A DNA stretch of 64,000 bases from Candidatus Omnitrophota bacterium (lineage in GTDB: Bacteria > Omnitrophota > Gorgyraeia > Zapsychrales > JAKLDJ01): positions 142,250 through 206,249 of the forward strand of contig JAKLDJ010000003.1 in assembly GCA_022703585.1 (NCBI GenBank). The letters are read 5' to 3'. This document shows positions 1,863 to 18,636 of this stretch, piece by piece. Position 1 is the stretch's first letter, and every line of letters begins with the position of its first letter. Below the pieces are notes generated by a model that searched no databases, was not told the origin of the DNA, and saw nothing but the letters and a program-made list of their open reading frames with translations. Both the position numbers and the translations under genes were made by a program.

Positions 1863-3062
1863 TCAGCGCTTGAGGGTTTCTTTGAATTTCTTGGTAAGGA
1901 GGGGGACGACTTGAAATAGGTCCCCGACAATGCCATAGGTGGCGACGCCAAAAATCGGCGCAGAGGGATCTTGGTTGATGGCAACAATCACCTCTGAGGA
2001 TTGCATTCCGACGAGGTGTTGAATTTGGCCTGAGATACCGCAGGCGATATAAAGCTTGGGGCAAACGGTTTTTCCGGTTTGGCCCACCTGATGGGAGTAA
2101 GGCATCCATTCGCTGTCAACAGCCGCCCGAGATGCACCTACCGCAGCCCCCAGCACTTTCGCTAATTCTTCCAAGAGGGCGAAATTTTCCGGCCCGCGCA
2201 TACCGCGGCCTCCGGAGACGATAATATCGGCTTCGCTGACGTTAATGGTCGAAGTTACTTCCTCGACGACTTCCAGGATGCTGGTGCGGGAAGTGAGAAG
2301 GGTGACGTCAAAATTCTCTTCGATGACTTTTCCTTTGCGTGTTTTGTCAATCGCTGCTTCCTTCATGACTTTGTGGCGTACCGTGGCCATCTGCGGCCGG
2401 TGGTTTCTGGTGATGATAGTGGCCATGATGTTTCCGCCGAAGGCAGGGCGGGTTTGCAAAAGAATTTTTTCCTTAGGGTCAATGTCAAGGGCGGTACAAT
2501 CCGCGGTTAAACCGGCGTGCAGCTTTACCGCGACCCGCGCAATTAGGGCTCGGCCGATAATCGTGGCGCCGGAAAGCAATATCTCGGGGCGGTGTTTGCG
2601 GATAAGATTGGCGAGGATTTTGGTGTATGGTTCGTCTAAGAAATGTTCCAGCTTTTGATTATCAACGATGTAGACATTGTCCGCGCCGCGGTAGATAAGC
2701 TCCTGGGCCTTGTCTTTGATGTTGTGGCCTAAAACTACGCAGGAAACCTGGGTGTCGAGATTCTTTGCTAATTCTCTTGCCTTGCCTAAAAGTTCAAAGA
2801 CGACCGGCTGGATAACGCCTTTCTTTTGTTCTCCGAAGACCCAAACGCCTTTATATTGATCGATATTTTCGGTCTTCTTCGATTCTCTTTTAAGTTCGAT
2901 CGCGTTAAAACGGCAGGCATCTAAGCAGGCACCGCAAAGGGTACATTTGTCCAGGTCAATAACTGCCTTCTTATCGACCATAGTAATGGCGCCGAAGGGG
3001 CAGACCTTAACGCAGAGTGTGCAGCCGGTACATTTATCGTTGATAACGCGGATACTGCTCAT
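1863..3062 (-). CDS. etfA: electron transfer flavoprotein alpha subunit fused to an N-terminal 2x[4Fe-4S] ferredoxin domain
   Basis: N-terminus CTGCTLCVKVCPFGAI ... CTLCGACLDACRFNAI (two CxxCxxCxxxCP clusters) followed by an EtfA FAD-binding domain (VSGGRGM, YIACGISGQIQH). Confidence 0.85.
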   Translation of the reverse strand: MSSIRVINDKCTGCTLCVKVCPFGAITMVDKKAVIDLDKCTLCGACLDACRFNAIELKRESKKTENIDQYKGVWVFGEQKKGVIQPVVFELLGKARELAKNLDTQVSCVVLGHNIKDKAQELIYRGADNVYIVDNQKLEHFLDEPYTKILANLIRKHRPEILLSGATIIGRALIARVAVKLHAGLTADCTALDIDPKEKILLQTRPAFGGNIMATIITRNHRPQMATVRHKVMKEAAIDKTRKGKVIEENFDVTLLTSRTSILEVVEEVTSTINVSEADIIVSGGRGMRGPENFALLEELAKVLGAAVGASRAAVDSEWMPYSHQVGQTGKTVCPKLYIACGISGQIQHLVGMQSSEVIVAINQDPSAPIFGVATYGIVGDLFQVVPLLTKKFKETLKR

Positions 3063-14542: not shown

Positions 14543-16126
14543 ATGAAGAAGAGCAAAGACCTAAAACAGAATGTTGAGAAATTAGTTTCGCTGGGGAAAA
14601 GCAAGGGGTATCTGACCTATGACGAGGTCAATTCCAATCTCTCCAACGATATTGATTCCTCGGATGACATTGATAAGGTTTTTGATATCCTTGACGGGGA
14701 AGACATTAAGGTGGTCGACTCCGAGGAGGATGCGGATCCCCAAGAATCTCAAGAAGAGGCTAAGGCCCAGGAGGCCGAGCGCTTAAGAGAAGAGCAGGGC
14801 AAAGAGGATAATGTCTACGCAGAAAAGTTTATTCCTCTCGATGACCCGGTTAAGATGTATTTAAAGCAGATGGGGTCGATCTCGCTTTTGTCGCGCGAAA
14901 ATGAAATTAGCCTGGCCAAGAAAATCGAGGATACGGAAAATAAATTTGCCGAGGCATTATTTAAAACTGCCTTTGCGCGTAAAGAGGCCTTAAGGATCAT
15001 TAACAGCGTTTTAAAAGGCGAGATCAATGTCGAGGATGTGGTGAAAGATGAGCTGGAAAGGCGCCCGAAGCTGATCCGTGATATCAAGAACATTATTCAC
15101 CAGGTCCGGCATTCGCGGGTGGGGTCAGATAAGTCGGCAAAGATTATCGCTGGCTTCAAATTAACCTCGACCGTCAATGAAGAGATTGTGGTAAAAATCA
15201 GCAAGCTTGTCGAGAGTATCGAAAAGATTTCCCGGACTTTGACGACGGAAAGAAAGACGAAACAGCTCTTAAAATTAAGAGAGCAAAAAAAACAGCTTAT
15301 TAGAGAGCTTTCCGAGCCCATTAATACTGTCAAGGACCAGTTGCGTATTATTAAAGTCCGTCAAGCCAAATTCAGCAGGGCCAAGAAAGAGCTTGTGGAG
15401 GCGAACCTAAGGCTGGTGGTAAGCATTGCCAAGAAGTACATTAACCGTGGTCTGTCCTTCCTGGACCTTATTCAAGAAGGGAACATGGGGCTGATTCGGG
15501 CGGTGGAAAAATTTGAATACCAGCGCGGATATAAATTCTCAACCTATGCAACCTGGTGGATTCGTCAGGCGATTACCCGCTCGATCGCGGACCAAGCCAG
15601 GACGATCAGAATTCCGGTGCATATGACCGAGACGATCAACAAGATTATCCGCGTTTCGCGGTTGTTCGTCCAGGAATACGGGCGTGAACCGACAGCTCCT
15701 GAAATTGCCCGGCAGATGCGTATTCCCATAGGCAAGGTTAAAGAGATCCTAAAAATCTCCCAGGTTCCGATTTCTCTGCAGACGCCTATCGGCGACGAAG
15801 GAGATACGCATTTTGGGGATTTTATCGAGGACAAAAAAGCCATCTCGCCGGCCAACGCCACGCTTCATTCCATGCTTAAAGACGAGATTGGGGGAGTATT
15901 AAATACCCTCGATGAACGTGAGCGCAAGATTCTGGAGATGCGTTTTGGTATTCATGACGGTTCCAGCCGCACCCTAGAAGAGGTTGGTAGCGAATTCAGT
16001 GTTACCCGCGAGAGGGTAAGGCAGATTGAATCCAAGGCGCTGCGGAAGCTGCGCCACCCCACGCGTTCAAGGAGACTTAAAACCTTTCTCGACATGACCG
16101 TAAAAGAAGGAGAAGGGCTGTTATAA
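14543..16126 (+). CDS. rpoD: RNA polymerase sigma-70 factor
   Basis: 527 aa; acidic region 1, region 2 [13 protein letters not shown]...[12 protein letters not shown], region 4 [18 protein letters not shown]. Confidence 0.9.
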
Positions 16127-16159
16127 ACATTGCCTTGCGATGGAAGGCATGAACGCCTA

Positions 16160-16196
16160 GGGGGCCTGCTGTTCACAGCAGGCCCCCTAAAGTTTT
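16160..16196 (+). terminator. rho-independent terminator after rpoD
   Basis: GGGGGCCTGCTG-TTCA-CAGCAGGCCCCC hairpin followed by TAAAGTTTT. Confidence 0.7.
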
Positions 16197-16237
16197 GGGG
16201 CTTCGAAAGTTATAACGGGGGTAGCGGTTATTTTTGC

Positions 16238-16266
16238 TTGCGAAAAGGTTCTTTTGATAGTAGAAT
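16238..16266 (+). promoter_or_regulatory. sigma70-like promoter for the tRNA cluster (TTGCGA-N17-TAGAAT)
   Basis: -35 TTGCGA 16238-16243, 17-nt spacer, -10 TAGAAT 16261-16266, about 30 nt upstream of tRNA-Met. Confidence 0.45.
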
Positions 16267-16299
16267 ACACCTTCAGCCCAAAGTTAAAATGGCGTTTTC

Positions 16300-16373
16300 G
16301 GGCCCATAGCTCAGACGGTTAGAGCAACTGACTCATAATCAGTGGGTCCCAGGTTCGATTCCTGGTGGGCCCA
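16300..16373 (+). tRNA. tRNA-Met (anticodon CAU; elongator type with G1-C72; could also be a lysidine-modified tRNA-Ile2)
   Basis: GGGCCCA acceptor stem pairs with TGGGCCC, D-arm GCTC/GAGC, anticodon stem ACTGA/TCAGT with loop CTCATAA, T-arm CCAGG-TTCGATT-CCTGG; no encoded CCA. Confidence 0.85.
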
Positions 16374-16427
16374 GCGATTATTGGTGTTTTAGTTCGGATA
16401 ATAATAAATTCTGGGCACATAGCTCAG

Positions 16428-16473
16428 CCCTGCTTTCCTTAAACGATTTTGTTCTAGAGGATGCAGGTGCAGC
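16428..16473 (+). repeat. direct repeat R1 (46 nt) immediately 3' of tRNA-Val(UAC) piece 1
   Basis: ccctgctttccttaaacgattttgttctagaggatgcaggtgcagc; about 40/46 identical to R2. Confidence 0.8.
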
Positions 16474-16552
16474 CCTTGACCTTTCTCAACGATAGCTTTT
16501 AGTTTTATTGAAGTCAAGGGCAGCTGGCTAGAGCGCTGCCCTTACATGGCAG

Positions 16553-16597
16553 CCCCGCTTTCCTTAAAAAATTTTGTTCTAGAAGAGCAGGTGCAGC
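16553..16597 (+). repeat. direct repeat R2 (45 nt) immediately 3' of tRNA-Val(UAC) piece 2
   Basis: ccccgctttccttaaaaaattttgttctagaagagcaggtgcagc. Confidence 0.8.
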
Positions 16598-16650
16598 ACT
16601 ATCTTTTTCTATGAAATAGTTGTGAAGAATAAAGCGAATAAAGATTTATT

Positions 16651-16724
16651 GGGTGCATAGCTCAGCTGGTTAGAGCGCTGCCCTCACATGGCAGAGGTCG
16701 AAGGTTCGAGTCCTTCTGTACCCA
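16651..16724 (+). tRNA. tRNA-Val (anticodon CAC), intact, nested between pieces 2 and 3 of the split tRNA-Val(UAC)
   Basis: GGGTGCA acceptor pairs with TGTACCC (one G.U), D-arm GCTC-AGCTGGTTA-GAGC, anticodon stem CTGCC/GGCAG with loop CTCACAT, T-arm GAAGG-TTCGAGT-CCTTC; 74 nt, no encoded CCA. Confidence 0.8.
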
Positions 16725-16728
16725 TGAT

Positions 16729-16757
16729 AAAATTTCTTTAGAGGGGAGCTGGTGCAG
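16729..16757 (+). repeat. partial third copy (3' half) of the R repeat, directly 3' of tRNA-Val(CAC) and 5' of tRNA-Val(UAC) piece 3
   Basis: aaaatttctttagaggggagctggtgcag aligns with the 3' half of R1/R2 (..attttgttctagaRgRgcaggtgcag). Confidence 0.6.
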
Positions 16758-16849
16758 AGGTCGAAGGTTCGAGTCCCTCTGTGCTCACCAGACTTGTTTT
16801 TTGGGATTTATTTAGAACTATTTTTCTTCTTAGACAAGGATAAAGTAAA

Positions 16850-17575
16850 GTGCCGGAAGTTTCGATTAAAGACCAAATCAAAAAGCTCGTCGATTTACAG
16901 ACGATTGACGCAGAAATTTATCTCTATAAACGTGATTTAAGAGAAAAGCCTCTTTACGTCGAAGAGCTTAAAAAAAGATACGAGGACAAAAAGGCAGGCC
17001 TTAAAGCCTTGGAGGAGAAGGCCAAGGCCATCCAGGTGAATCGCAAAGCCCAGGAATTGGAGTTGCAAACCAAAGAAGGTGATATCGTTAAGGCTAATGC
17101 CCAGCTGTCGTTGCTTAAAACCAATAAAGAGTATCAGGCGAAATTGACTGAGATCCAGAGTATGAAGGCCGATAAGTCTGTCATCGAAGAAAAGATTCTT
17201 GTTTTCTATGATGAGAGCGATGCGGTTAACGCTGATATTGAGAAGGAGCGTAAGTTTCTAGCCGAAGAAGAGCAGAAATATCTGACGCAGAAAAAAGAGG
17301 TTGATGATTCGGTTAAGGAAATCGAAGAAAAGCTTAAAGTCCTGAATCTCAAGAGAAGTCAAATTACTCCCGACATAAGCAAATCTAACTTAAGCCGCTA
17401 TGAGAGAGTGTTGGAGAATAAAGACGGATTGGCCATTGTTCCTGTTAACGGCAATTCTTGCGGTGGCTGTTTTATGAGCGTGCCGGATCAAGTCATTAAC
17501 GAAATTAAGATGCACGAGAGGCTTGTCCTTTGCGAGATGTGTTCGAGGGTGTTGTATCTCGCGGATGACCTTTAA
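16850..17575 (+). CDS. coiled-coil protein with a C-terminal C4 zinc ribbon (COG1579/DUF164 family)
   Basis: GTG start; long coiled coil then NGNSCGGCFMSVPDQ...LVLCEMCSRVLY zinc ribbon; this family often sits just upstream of rnhA/rnpB. Confidence 0.7.
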   Translation: MPEVSIKDQIKKLVDLQTIDAEIYLYKRDLREKPLYVEELKKRYEDKKAGLKALEEKAKAIQVNRKAQELELQTKEGDIVKANAQLSLLKTNKEYQAKLTEIQSMKADKSVIEEKILVFYDESDAVNADIEKERKFLAEEEQKYLTQKKEVDDSVKEIEEKLKVLNLKRSQITPDISKSNLSRYERVLENKDGLAIVPVNGNSCGGCFMSVPDQVINEIKMHERLVLCEMCSRVLYLADDL

Positions 17576-17646: not shown

Positions 17647-18108
17647 TTGAGCAAGACACTTGAAATATTTATTGACGGTGCCTGCAAAGGAAATCCCGGC
17701 CCGGCTGCCGTCGGCGTCGTGATTACGGACAACGGAAAGACCGTTAAAAATATTTCCAAGGCTATCGGCCATGCGACGAATAACATTGCCGAATATATGG
17801 CTCTTGTTTATGCCTTGCAGGAGGCGCTTATTCTGCGCGTGGACAAGATCAGGGTTTACACCGATAGTGAGCTTCTCTGCAATCAAGTCAACGGCAGTTA
17901 CAAGATTAAAAATCCGCATCTGAAATTTTTTCATGCTCAGGTCGAGCATTTATTGTCGGGATTTAAGGACGCCCAGATAAGGCATATCCCCCGGGAAAAA
18001 AACCGCGGGGCGGATCGGTTAGCGTCCAAGGCGATATCAAAAGAGCAAGTCAAGGCAACCGCCCTGATGTTTGACATCGGGGAGGAAAGTCCGAGCTCCG
18101 AAGGATGA
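17647..18108 (+). CDS. rnhA: ribonuclease HI
   Basis: TTG start; IFIDGACKGNPGPAAVGVV, NNIAEYMALVYAL and TDSELL catalytic motifs; last about 22 codons are encoded by the 5' part of the RNase P RNA. Confidence 0.85.
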   Translation: MSKTLEIFIDGACKGNPGPAAVGVVITDNGKTVKNISKAIGHATNNIAEYMALVYALQEALILRVDKIRVYTDSELLCNQVNGSYKIKNPHLKFFHAQVEHLLSGFKDAQIRHIPREKNRGADRLASKAISKEQVKATALMFDIGEESPSSEG

Positions 18109-18543
18109 TGCATCCCGGTAATGCGGGACCTTGCTGGCGTTTGGCGGATAGCGGTTAGCGTTTAGAGATTAATTTTTCTATCCGCTATACGCTAAACGCT
18201 CTACGCTGGCATGAGGATTAGAGCCACAGTGACGATGCCCGGCGCTTTACGGCGTGCGGGAGTGAAACGAGCAATCTCTGCATGGAGCAAGGCCGAATAG
18301 GGAAAGACTTCCCGTTTCTACGGGGGACGAGGCCGTCCACCTCGTTATCCTACTTCGCTAAATACTACCGTGTTTAGCTTCGTAGGATTCTACGAAGTCC
18401 AAAGCGAAAGCATTTGGACGAAGTAGAATGATTTCCGGGTAGGCCGCAAGAATCCGGGGAGTAATTTCCGGAGTTAGTCGAATGGTTGCCCGTCTCGCCC
18501 TAAAAAATCGAGATACACAAAACTCGGCTTATTGACTTGCTCT
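18043..18543 (+). ncRNA. rnpB: RNase P RNA, bacterial type A, with extended peripheral helices (about 500 nt)
   Basis: P4 5' strand GGAGGAAAGTCCGAGCTCC (18080-18099) and P4 3' strand ACAAAACTCGGCTTA (18516-18530); 12-bp P1 AGAGCAAGTCAA (18043-18054) pairs with TTGACTTGCTCT (18532-18543); GGAGCAAGGCCGAATAGGGAAAGAC block matches the E. coli GGAGCAAGGCCAAAUAGGGG region. Confidence 0.8.
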
Positions 18544-18636
18544 ATAATTTCTGAAGGGTAGTTTCATGTTTTTGTGTACGTTTATACAGTAGATTAAATT
18601 AAATAGTGGTTAATATTAATTCAAGGAGGAATCACG

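Follow-up and report, generated by a model that had tools for sequence, protein, structure and literature searches.

A tRNA-Val(CAC) gene in an Omnitrophota genome, probably broken by two inserts and replaced by a nested copy

In a 64,000-nt stretch of a Candidatus Omnitrophota genome (the window, to which all coordinates refer), a tRNA-Val gene lies in three co-linear pieces with an intact tRNA-Val(CAC) gene nested between the second and the third. Based on comparison with related loci, designated here by L-numbers, we consider it likely that an ordinary tRNA-Val(CAC) gene was recently broken at this locus by two inserts and replaced by the nested copy. The original would have been a single tRNA-Val(CAC) gene filling the slot between a tRNA-Met gene and a zinc-ribbon gene. 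Two related segments of 96 and 205 nt, each headed by a repeat that we call R, would have been joined into this resident gene at CAG-containing sites, so that a gene of the GGGCACA type was invaded by one of the GGGTGCA type. The second segment would be a cassette that brought a working tRNA-Val(CAC), and the nested intact gene would now supply this tRNA. The features of the locus, in order, are as follows.

16413-16427 (+): P1, 15 nt, gene positions 1-15, with the acceptor 5' strand GGGCACA and the D-stem 5' strand.
16428-16472 (+): R1, a 45-nt hairpin-forming repeat ending in GGTGCAG, the first half of insert 1.
16473-16523 (+): H, a 51-nt hairpin CCCTTGAC...GTCAAGGG ending in CAG, the second half of insert 1.
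16524-16552 (+): P2, 29 nt, gene positions 16-44, with the remaining D arm and the anticodon arm, anticodon TAC.
16553-16596 (+): R2, the second copy of R, at the left end of insert 2.
16597-16650 (+): an AT-rich spacer of 54 nt from R2 to the nested tRNA gene.
16651-16724 (+): the nested tRNA-Val(CAC) gene, intact and without an encoded CCA, found by ARAGORN and Rfam (71.2 bits).
16725-16757 (+): R3, a partial copy of R adjoining the nested tRNA gene and ending in GGTGCAG, at the right end of insert 2.
16758-16790 (+): P3, positions 45-73 of the broken gene plus an encoded CCA, with the ancestral downstream flank attached.

The three pieces, their homology and their tiling were observed directly. 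P1, P2 and the 30-nt body of P3 (16758-16787, followed by CCA at 16788-16790) add up to 74 nt (15 + 29 + 30) and form a cloverleaf without gap or overlap, which reproduces the coordinates and the fold given in the initial annotation. ARAGORN called the joined 74-nt sequence as tRNA-Val(tac), and its fold contained the features described at the outset, namely an acceptor stem of 7 bp with one G.U pair and a T stem with one A.C mismatch. When the sequence was left unjoined, the only tRNA genes reported by ARAGORN and Rfam were the tRNA-Met at 16300-16373 and the nested tRNA-Val(CAC), whose presence had also been noted. Judged by E-value, the pieces are homologous tRNA-Val copies and chance matches are excluded. 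P2 and P3 matched the nested gene with E-values of 1e-9 to 1e-10, and P1, P2 and P3 matched the uninterrupted Val gene of the relative L167 with E-values of 6e-6, 2e-8 and 1e-13, P1 at 16 of 16 positions. The nested gene and P3 have 28 of 30 nt in common over positions 45-74. The acceptor pair 4:69 is C-G in the split gene and U-A in the nested gene, and since this difference is compensatory, P1 and P3 appear to come from one gene.

The split gene is taken to be the resident copy because P3 holds the ancestral 3' end by flank orthology with the closest relative found, L162/L163 (one locus in two samples). The zinc-ribbon protein of this relative is 93% identical at the amino acid level, the genes flanking the L162 locus show approximately 87% nucleotide identity to the window, and the tRNA-Met is 100% identical. 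All that L162 has between tRNA-Met and the zinc-ribbon gene is an unrelated spacer of 89 nt together with an intact Val(CAC) gene, after which come CCA and the flank. The window flank after P3 (16788-16849) is 86.6% identical to the flank after the intact Val gene of L162, whereas that L162 flank is only 35.7% identical to the sequence after the nested gene. The nested gene itself matches the Val gene of L162 at 74 of 74 positions and, by eye, is also identical to that of L002. The uninterrupted form of the resident allele, GGGCACA...TGTGCCCACCA, was found in L167 and L083. Going by its absence from L162/L163, the split gene is dispensable at roughly the genus level. The resident position of P3 and the absence of the split gene from the closest relative are observations; the order of events and the non-function of the broken copy are what we infer.

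Insert 1 (96 nt, R1 plus H) lies in the D loop, between gene positions 15 and 16, while insert 2 (205 nt, comprising R2, the spacer, the intact tRNA-Val(CAC) and R3) separates positions 44 and 45, where the anticodon stem meets the variable loop. R1 and R2 are identical at 41 of 46 positions, and R3 corresponds to R2 positions 12-44 with a score equalled by none of 2000 shuffles, so that the repeat pair and partial third copy of the initial annotation hold up. R1 folds at -14.5 kcal/mol (z = -2.9), the H hairpin CCCTTGAC/GTCAAGGG, also reported initially, spans 16473-16520, and insert 1 as a whole forms two hairpins (-31.8 kcal/mol, z = -4.4). The R2 hairpin has decayed (z = -0.09) and R3 is unfolded. 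R2 resembles the spacer between the Met and Val genes of L002 (0 of 500 shuffles as good). The spacer after R2 has no significant similarity to H, and orthology between the 39-nt spacer before P1 and the Met-Val spacer of L167 was not significant. A scan of the window for a CC...GG hairpin followed by CAG returned, outside coding DNA, only R1 and H. No + strand promoter-like site or T-run terminator was found within the inserts, so a promoter or terminator role for R and H is unsupported. Scans of viral contigs for R and for the P1/R junction gave matches at chance level only.

The boundaries follow a common pattern. CAG terminates each piece and each insert, as had been pointed out, and the pattern could be sharpened to 4-nt repeats that bound the inserts (CAGC for insert 1 and GCAG for insert 2, with CAG common to both). 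R and H also end in GCAG, and the 4-nt bounding repeats fit a target-site duplication, a recombination core or microhomology equally. Because the inserts share the R 5' end, the GCAG 3' end and the 4-nt bounding repeats, one sequence-guided joining process seems indicated, and it could have been site-specific recombination or the repair of a break via the short CAG core. We infer that a trans-acting recombinase, or a nuclease-induced break followed by repair, was responsible, because relatives carry GIY-YIG nuclease and integrase cases (see below). The exact tiling would be due to insertion removing nothing and to the events being recent, and not to any rejoining of the pieces. The disruption may have persisted because the second segment carried a working tRNA. 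With tRNA-Val(CAC) supplied by the nested gene, the broken copy would have been free to drift, accumulating four transitions, one of which changed CAC to UAC.

Two further observations were made on the repeats and hairpins. A reading of R1, R2 and R3 as repeats of the CRISPR (clustered regularly interspaced short palindromic repeats) type was considered and rejected; the copies have diverged, their spacing is irregular, and what would have to be "spacers" are pieces of tRNA. The L162 locus (2369-3000) carries two extra hairpin-bearing segments of approximately 102 and 53 nt upstream of tRNA-Met that are missing from the window, where they correspond to sites 16211|16212 and 16282|16283. The first of these segments holds GGGTGCAGCACCCCTTGA, which resembles the junction of the R end and H start in the window, GGTGCAGCCCTTGA. 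The difference suggests presence/absence variation of related small elements.

All the intact orthologues among the Val genes compared from this slot (101 of 101) read CAC. The join does read UAC, as the initial annotation had it, but with CAC in every orthologue and T34 a private transition, the broken gene was probably a tRNA-Val(CAC) and the label tRNA-Val(UAC) is probably wrong. Four bases of the split gene are rare or private among the orthologues, and all four are transitions.

C20: present in 2 of 101 orthologues; no effect noted.
T34 (C34T): present in 0 of 101; gives the UAC anticodon.
C63: present in 5 of 101; breaks a T-stem pair (the A.C mismatch).
T71: present in 0 of 101; accounts for the acceptor-stem G.U pair.

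Such a set of changes is consistent with relaxed selection after the nested gene had made this copy redundant. Since GUA codons are used, a UAC-type tRNA must exist somewhere in the genome; no authentic tRNA-Val(UAC) of Omnitrophota was available for comparison among the related loci examined.

Several points weigh against breakage and replacement. The broken gene has not lost a single nucleotide, and the join still folds and is still called as a tRNA. The C34T change yields exactly the anticodon for GUA codons, which make up 9.9% of the Val codons in 28 open reading frames (ORFs) of the window. The order of events rests on flank orthology and on the allele types of relatives rather than on a same-species empty site. 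Within approximately 10 kb of the locus, Pfam listings contained housekeeping genes only, with no integrase, transposase, GIY-YIG nuclease or splicing enzyme. Allowing up to three mismatches, we found no further copy of R in the 64-kb window, which, as far as the window goes, also bears on the proposal to check R1 and R2 as a dispersed element. Terminal inverted repeats are absent, the hairpins being internal and the insert ends not inverted copies of one another. Thus neither dispersed copies of R or H in the window nor terminal inverted repeats point to an insertion mechanism. The same two negatives limit an idea from the initial annotation, in which the gene was hit twice by an element resembling a miniature inverted-repeat transposable element (MITE). 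Two small repeat-bearing inserts are indeed present, but the second is better described as a replacement-tRNA cassette.

The same architecture was observed in other Omnitrophota. In L189 (a 73% relative), the resident Val(CAC) gene lies in co-linear pieces covering positions 1-12, 22-45, 48-57 and 58-77 (with CCA); an intact Val gene of another allele sits between the first two, and hairpin inserts part the later ones. Positions 13-21 and 46-47 of this resident gene have been lost, and because these 11 nucleotides are missing it cannot be spliced into a tRNA. L001 (a 66% relative) has a broken Val gene with inserts at about 15/16 and 44/45, followed by R-like sequence, and R-like sequence also occurs in L002, in the spacer upstream of its Val gene. 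By our count, roughly 20 or more of approximately 150 loci carry same-strand tRNA fragments beside intact genes. The breakpoints of these fragments cluster at 15/16, 44/45 and 56/57, the positions at which hairpin inserts are found in other Omnitrophota, the resident gene being tRNA-Met or tRNA-Val.

Nuclease or integrase genes accompany some of these loci. In L082 (923-1393), L098 (1516-1977, = L099) and L164 (2270-2701, = L165 and L166), a broken resident tRNA-Met encloses a small GIY-YIG ORF of 84-98 aa (PF01541) and, after it, an intact tRNA-Met. The break lies in the anticodon loop in L082 and L098, and the resident Met 5' fragment also has a two-hairpin insert of the CTCCGAC/CCCCGAC family. 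The GIY-YIG unit looks like a homing-type cassette bringing its own tRNA. In L170 (1-2500, = L171), an intact tRNA-Met begins 23 nt after the last of a set of genes from an integrative and conjugative element (ICE; TraG-like coupling protein, ORF6N, HTH_17 and tyrosine integrase), and behind this tRNA-Met comes a resident Met 3' fragment with the T-loop module. The tRNA-Met/Val slot is thus also an integrase target.

Tentatively, these cases can be extended to a wider proposal, that Omnitrophota harbour undescribed mobile DNA aimed at tRNA genes and made up of hairpin modules and replacement-tRNA cassettes. We regard this as possible but doubtful. The hairpin modules would enter cloverleaf loops (15/16, 44/45 and 56/57), guided by structure rather than sequence. 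The cassettes would carry a complete tRNA, some being bare, some having a GIY-YIG nuclease and some riding on integrase-bearing elements, and they would land in a resident gene of the same identity and so become indispensable. In the window, such a replacement would then have left a footprint that is fresh and as yet complete.

Four kinds of sequence recurring at the related loci were recorded separately. The first is a conserved T-loop module of two hairpins, TCCCGC...GCGGGA and then YCCCRCC...GGYGGGR, located exactly between GGTTC and GAATCC (56/57) in 3' fragments of tRNA-Met or tRNA-Val that come immediately after the intact gene (L020 3218-3307, L084 1978-2072, L107, L117, L129, L164 2734-2818, L170 2340-2423 and, in a Val fragment, L043). 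Among 8 sequences of this module, 7 of 20 predicted pairs show compensatory changes, and the loops are freely variable. The second is a structured element of approximately 110-130 nt, ...GACCAAAAAGGGGTGTGGGGAAA..TTTCCCCACGCTTTCGGGGTAACAGCGA...GGGGAGCGACGAG..GAGCGAC, conserved in several relatives (L028, L029, L030, L034 157-261, L100 171-332 and L109 2644-2803). On one side it is flanked by an intact tRNA (Met or Val) and on the other by a perfect second copy of the part of that tRNA running from 44/45 to the 3' end, with 30 to approximately 84 nt duplicated. The stems of this element covary between genomes by eye, and a search of Rfam with it gave no match. With a 3' junction that is fixed and a 5' duplication that varies, the element would be compatible with insertion by target priming or at a staggered cut.

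The third is a perfect 20-nt palindrome, CCTGCCTGCCGGCAGGCAGG, which occurs with near copies at T-loop or D-loop sites of tRNA fragments in several unrelated genomes (L028 1606-1625, L029 3043-3062, L044 3824-3843, L111 2825-2844, L033 1285-1304, L043/L113, L105 and L150) and also twice outside tRNAs. A related 15-nt insert, CCTGTCGCAGGCAGG, is present in L189 at 57/58. The fourth consists of exact tandem duplications of a tRNA part together with a spacer or hairpin, adjoining the intact gene in five relatives (L016 3573-3784, L030 3446-3779, L098 2072-2320, L123 2636-2905 and L005 3768-3871). These could reflect recent unequal exchange or a repeat-collapse or repeat-expansion error of short-read assembly.

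An origin without foreign DNA was also weighed, in which a unit of R, spacer and tRNA-Val was amplified locally in tandem and then pared down by deletions at CAG microhomologies. Such a history would account for three copies of R that each follow a tRNA segment and for the CAG or 4-nt repeats at all junctions, and the exact duplications in L005, L016, L030, L098 and L123 provide examples of a tRNA part and its spacer being copied together. It would, however, require at least three independent deletions that happened to leave positions 1-15, 16-44 and 45-76 gapless, a tiling that insertion gives automatically. The allele of the pieces also differs from that of the nested gene, with compensation at 4:69, and P1 and P3 pair with each other and not with the nested gene. 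We therefore regard local amplification as improbable, and insertion into a resident gene as the better account of the locus.

Still less probable, in our assessment, is a functional tRNA-Val(UAC) with two intervening sequences that are excised, the exons being ligated by an unknown or archaeal-like pathway in a bacterium. This multi-intron candidate of the initial annotation draws on the exact 15 + 29 + 30 nt tiling, on the covarying acceptor stem and the ARAGORN call for the join, and on the use of GUA codons. The pieces all share one strand and have a promoter-like site upstream of them, and the inserts at 15/16 and 44/45 are in loops; archaeal non-canonical introns also fall at such loop positions. 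As had been advised, the junctions were examined for a motif of the bulge-helix-bulge (BHB) kind, defined as a 3-nt bulge, a 4-bp helix and a 3-nt bulge, at both junctions and with a 3-nt ambiguity allowed for the boundaries. No strict hBHBh' candidate was found at either insert. The best relaxed scores, 6 and 8, compare with a median of 6 and a 90th percentile of 8 for 3000 random site pairs, so that neither junction has a motif above random. Rfam searches, run at E-values up to 10 over 15500-17500 and at the gathering threshold over 14 related loci, returned nothing but tRNAs and RNase P RNA, with no group I or group II intron, ribozyme or further family hitting any insert.

The layout of the locus speaks against splicing as well. 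Standard tRNA maturation cuts at the 5' and 3' ends of a tRNA. Because the complete tRNA inside insert 2 would undergo its own maturation by RNase P and 3' processing, the precursor would be cut between P2 and P3. The R2 hairpin has decayed and R3 is unfolded while R1 folds, and the would-be exons contain a T-stem mismatch and changes found in 0 to 5 of 101 orthologues. At the corresponding locus of the closest relative found there is no split gene, and the equivalent arrangement in L189 has lost 11 nt.

The remaining candidate of the initial annotation, an assembly artefact in which reads of several tRNA-Val loci or strains were stitched together, could be suggested by the metagenome-assembled data and the short repeats at the locus, but it is rejected as extremely improbable. 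A second assembly, made with a different assembler and kept in a different archive (ENA ERZ795054 NODE_24, 348 kb, 21.7x coverage, the reads of which may be common to both), agrees without a difference over 7747 nt, a span that takes in 16290-16800. Records of the proteins encoded here come from 10 to 17 contigs, mostly >0.2 Mb, the repeats are diverged (89-96% identical) and no longer than 45 nt, and analogous structures occur in many unrelated assemblies. The window is also identical to contig DAOOUB010000002.1 of GCA_035390605.1.

The surroundings of the broken gene are well conserved. The order rpoD, tRNA-Met, tRNA-Val(CAC), zinc-ribbon gene (PF02591) is kept in approximately 45 Omnitrophota genomes, and an RNase P RNA gene lies downstream of the slot. 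Two features lie to the left of the pieces.

16238-16266 (+): a promoter-like site, TTGCGA-17-TAGAAT, upstream of tRNA-Met, identified by consensus match only.
16300-16373 (+): tRNA-Met(CAU), the intact conserved left neighbour, found by ARAGORN and Rfam and 100% identical to that of L162.

Transcription of the entire tRNA cluster, the pieces among it, would be driven from the promoter-like site. Upstream of it, at 16160-16187 (+) and approximately 35 nt past the rpoD stop codon, is a perfect GC-rich hairpin, GGGGGCCTGCTG TTCA CAGCAGGCCCCC, followed by TAAAGTTTTGGGG. It is kept in L162, is absent from the output of a simple terminator scan, and is probably the rpoD terminator. The RNase P RNA is of the bacterial class A (18042-18547, +, 142.8 bits) and is 506 nt long compared with 367 nt for the model, with expansions of approximately 76 and 120 nt; the RNase P RNA genes of relatives are likewise long (420-570 nt). 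An RNase H-like ORF (17647-18108), annotated in one assembly (L175) and not in the other (L174), extends at its 3' end into the first 67 nt of the RNase P RNA. Near the tRNA-Met/Val slot of L031 (978-1415, -) and L033 (2995-3349, +), ARAGORN made transfer-messenger RNA calls with unusual tag peptides, which may be real or may be false calls set off by tRNA-like fragments.

For annotation, the locus is best entered as one working tRNA-Val(CAC) gene and a three-piece pseudogene, and the UAC anticodon of the split copy should not be counted in the tRNA set. That a bacterial multi-intron tRNA is not supported here is a negative but useful outcome. The interest of the locus is moderate, the points of note being a pattern that is specific to loops and extends across the lineage, and the structured hairpin modules in Omnitrophota. 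If a dedicated process is at work, selfish DNA would have a new means of exploiting tRNA genes, and the same process would cause tRNA genes to be called falsely or missed in the genomes of uncultured bacteria. Our searches of the literature on bacterial BHB introns, loop-disrupted tRNA genes and Omnitrophota tRNA introns found no description of the pattern.

Among known structures, the nearest are the displaced tRNA fragments that remain after DNA has integrated into tRNA genes. Such fragments border islands integrated by tyrosine integrases, as catalogued in the Islander database (PMC4383910) and in a survey of tRNA fragments (PMC9897764). The present locus is alike in that an intact tRNA and a same-strand partial copy bound inserted DNA, in that the locus is an integration hot spot, and in that the relative L170 has ICE genes with a tyrosine integrase at this tRNA-Met. 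It is unlike them in that the inserts are only 96 and 205 nt long and have neither an ORF nor an integrase. The working tRNA here is wholly nested rather than a hybrid with a resident 5' part and a 3' part from the island, its 5' strand GGGTGCA pairing with its own 3' strand while the resident GGGCACA survives apart as P1. In addition, 5', middle and 3' fragments all survive. Integrases usually break tRNA genes in the anticodon loop, in the T loop or at the 3' end, whereas the breakpoints found here are in the D loop and at 44/45.

Multi-intron, split and tri-split tRNA genes of archaea, which are processed at BHB motifs by EndA (PMC4390854, PMC6379350), share with this locus the co-linear exons that tile a cloverleaf and the interruption of loops outside the anticodon loop. 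They differ in that the host here is bacterial, no BHB is present, a whole tRNA is nested, and the interrupted copy is undergoing decay and has no counterpart in the closest relative found. Neither a splicing endonuclease EndA nor an RNA ligase appeared in the Pfam listings around the locus, the sequence covered being the 64-kb window and flanks of approximately 20 kb. Bacterial group I introns occur in tRNA anticodon loops, including a 35/36 site in Patescibacteria (PMC13011429), and as here the interruption hides the gene from standard tRNA finders. Those introns are self-splicing ribozymes of the anticodon loop, whereas the present inserts interrupt the gene at 15/16 and 44/45 and have no match among intron models. 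Nor do the inserts fit an intron size of approximately 200 nt or more with catalytic core helices, being 96 and 205 nt long, with 74 nt of the latter taken up by a tRNA.

Compared with MITEs, repetitive extragenic palindromic (REP) elements and insertion sequences (IS) of the IS200-IS605 type, the inserts are alike in being short, non-coding and hairpin-bearing, in having common ends (GCAG) and in being located at a short repeated target. They are unlike them in that terminal inverted repeats are absent, the 64 kb contain no further copy, and one of the two inserts contains a tRNA gene. The closest precedent for a GIY-YIG nuclease tied to the replacement of a tRNA region is SegB of phage T4, a free-standing homing endonuclease in a tRNA gene cluster (PMC2330249). 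The window has no ORF with a GIY-YIG motif and differs from the SegB type in this respect. The likeness lies in the relatives L082, L098/L099 and L164-166, each with a GIY-YIG ORF and an intact tRNA-Met inside a broken tRNA-Met, which is the layout that nuclease-driven replacement of a tRNA region would leave.

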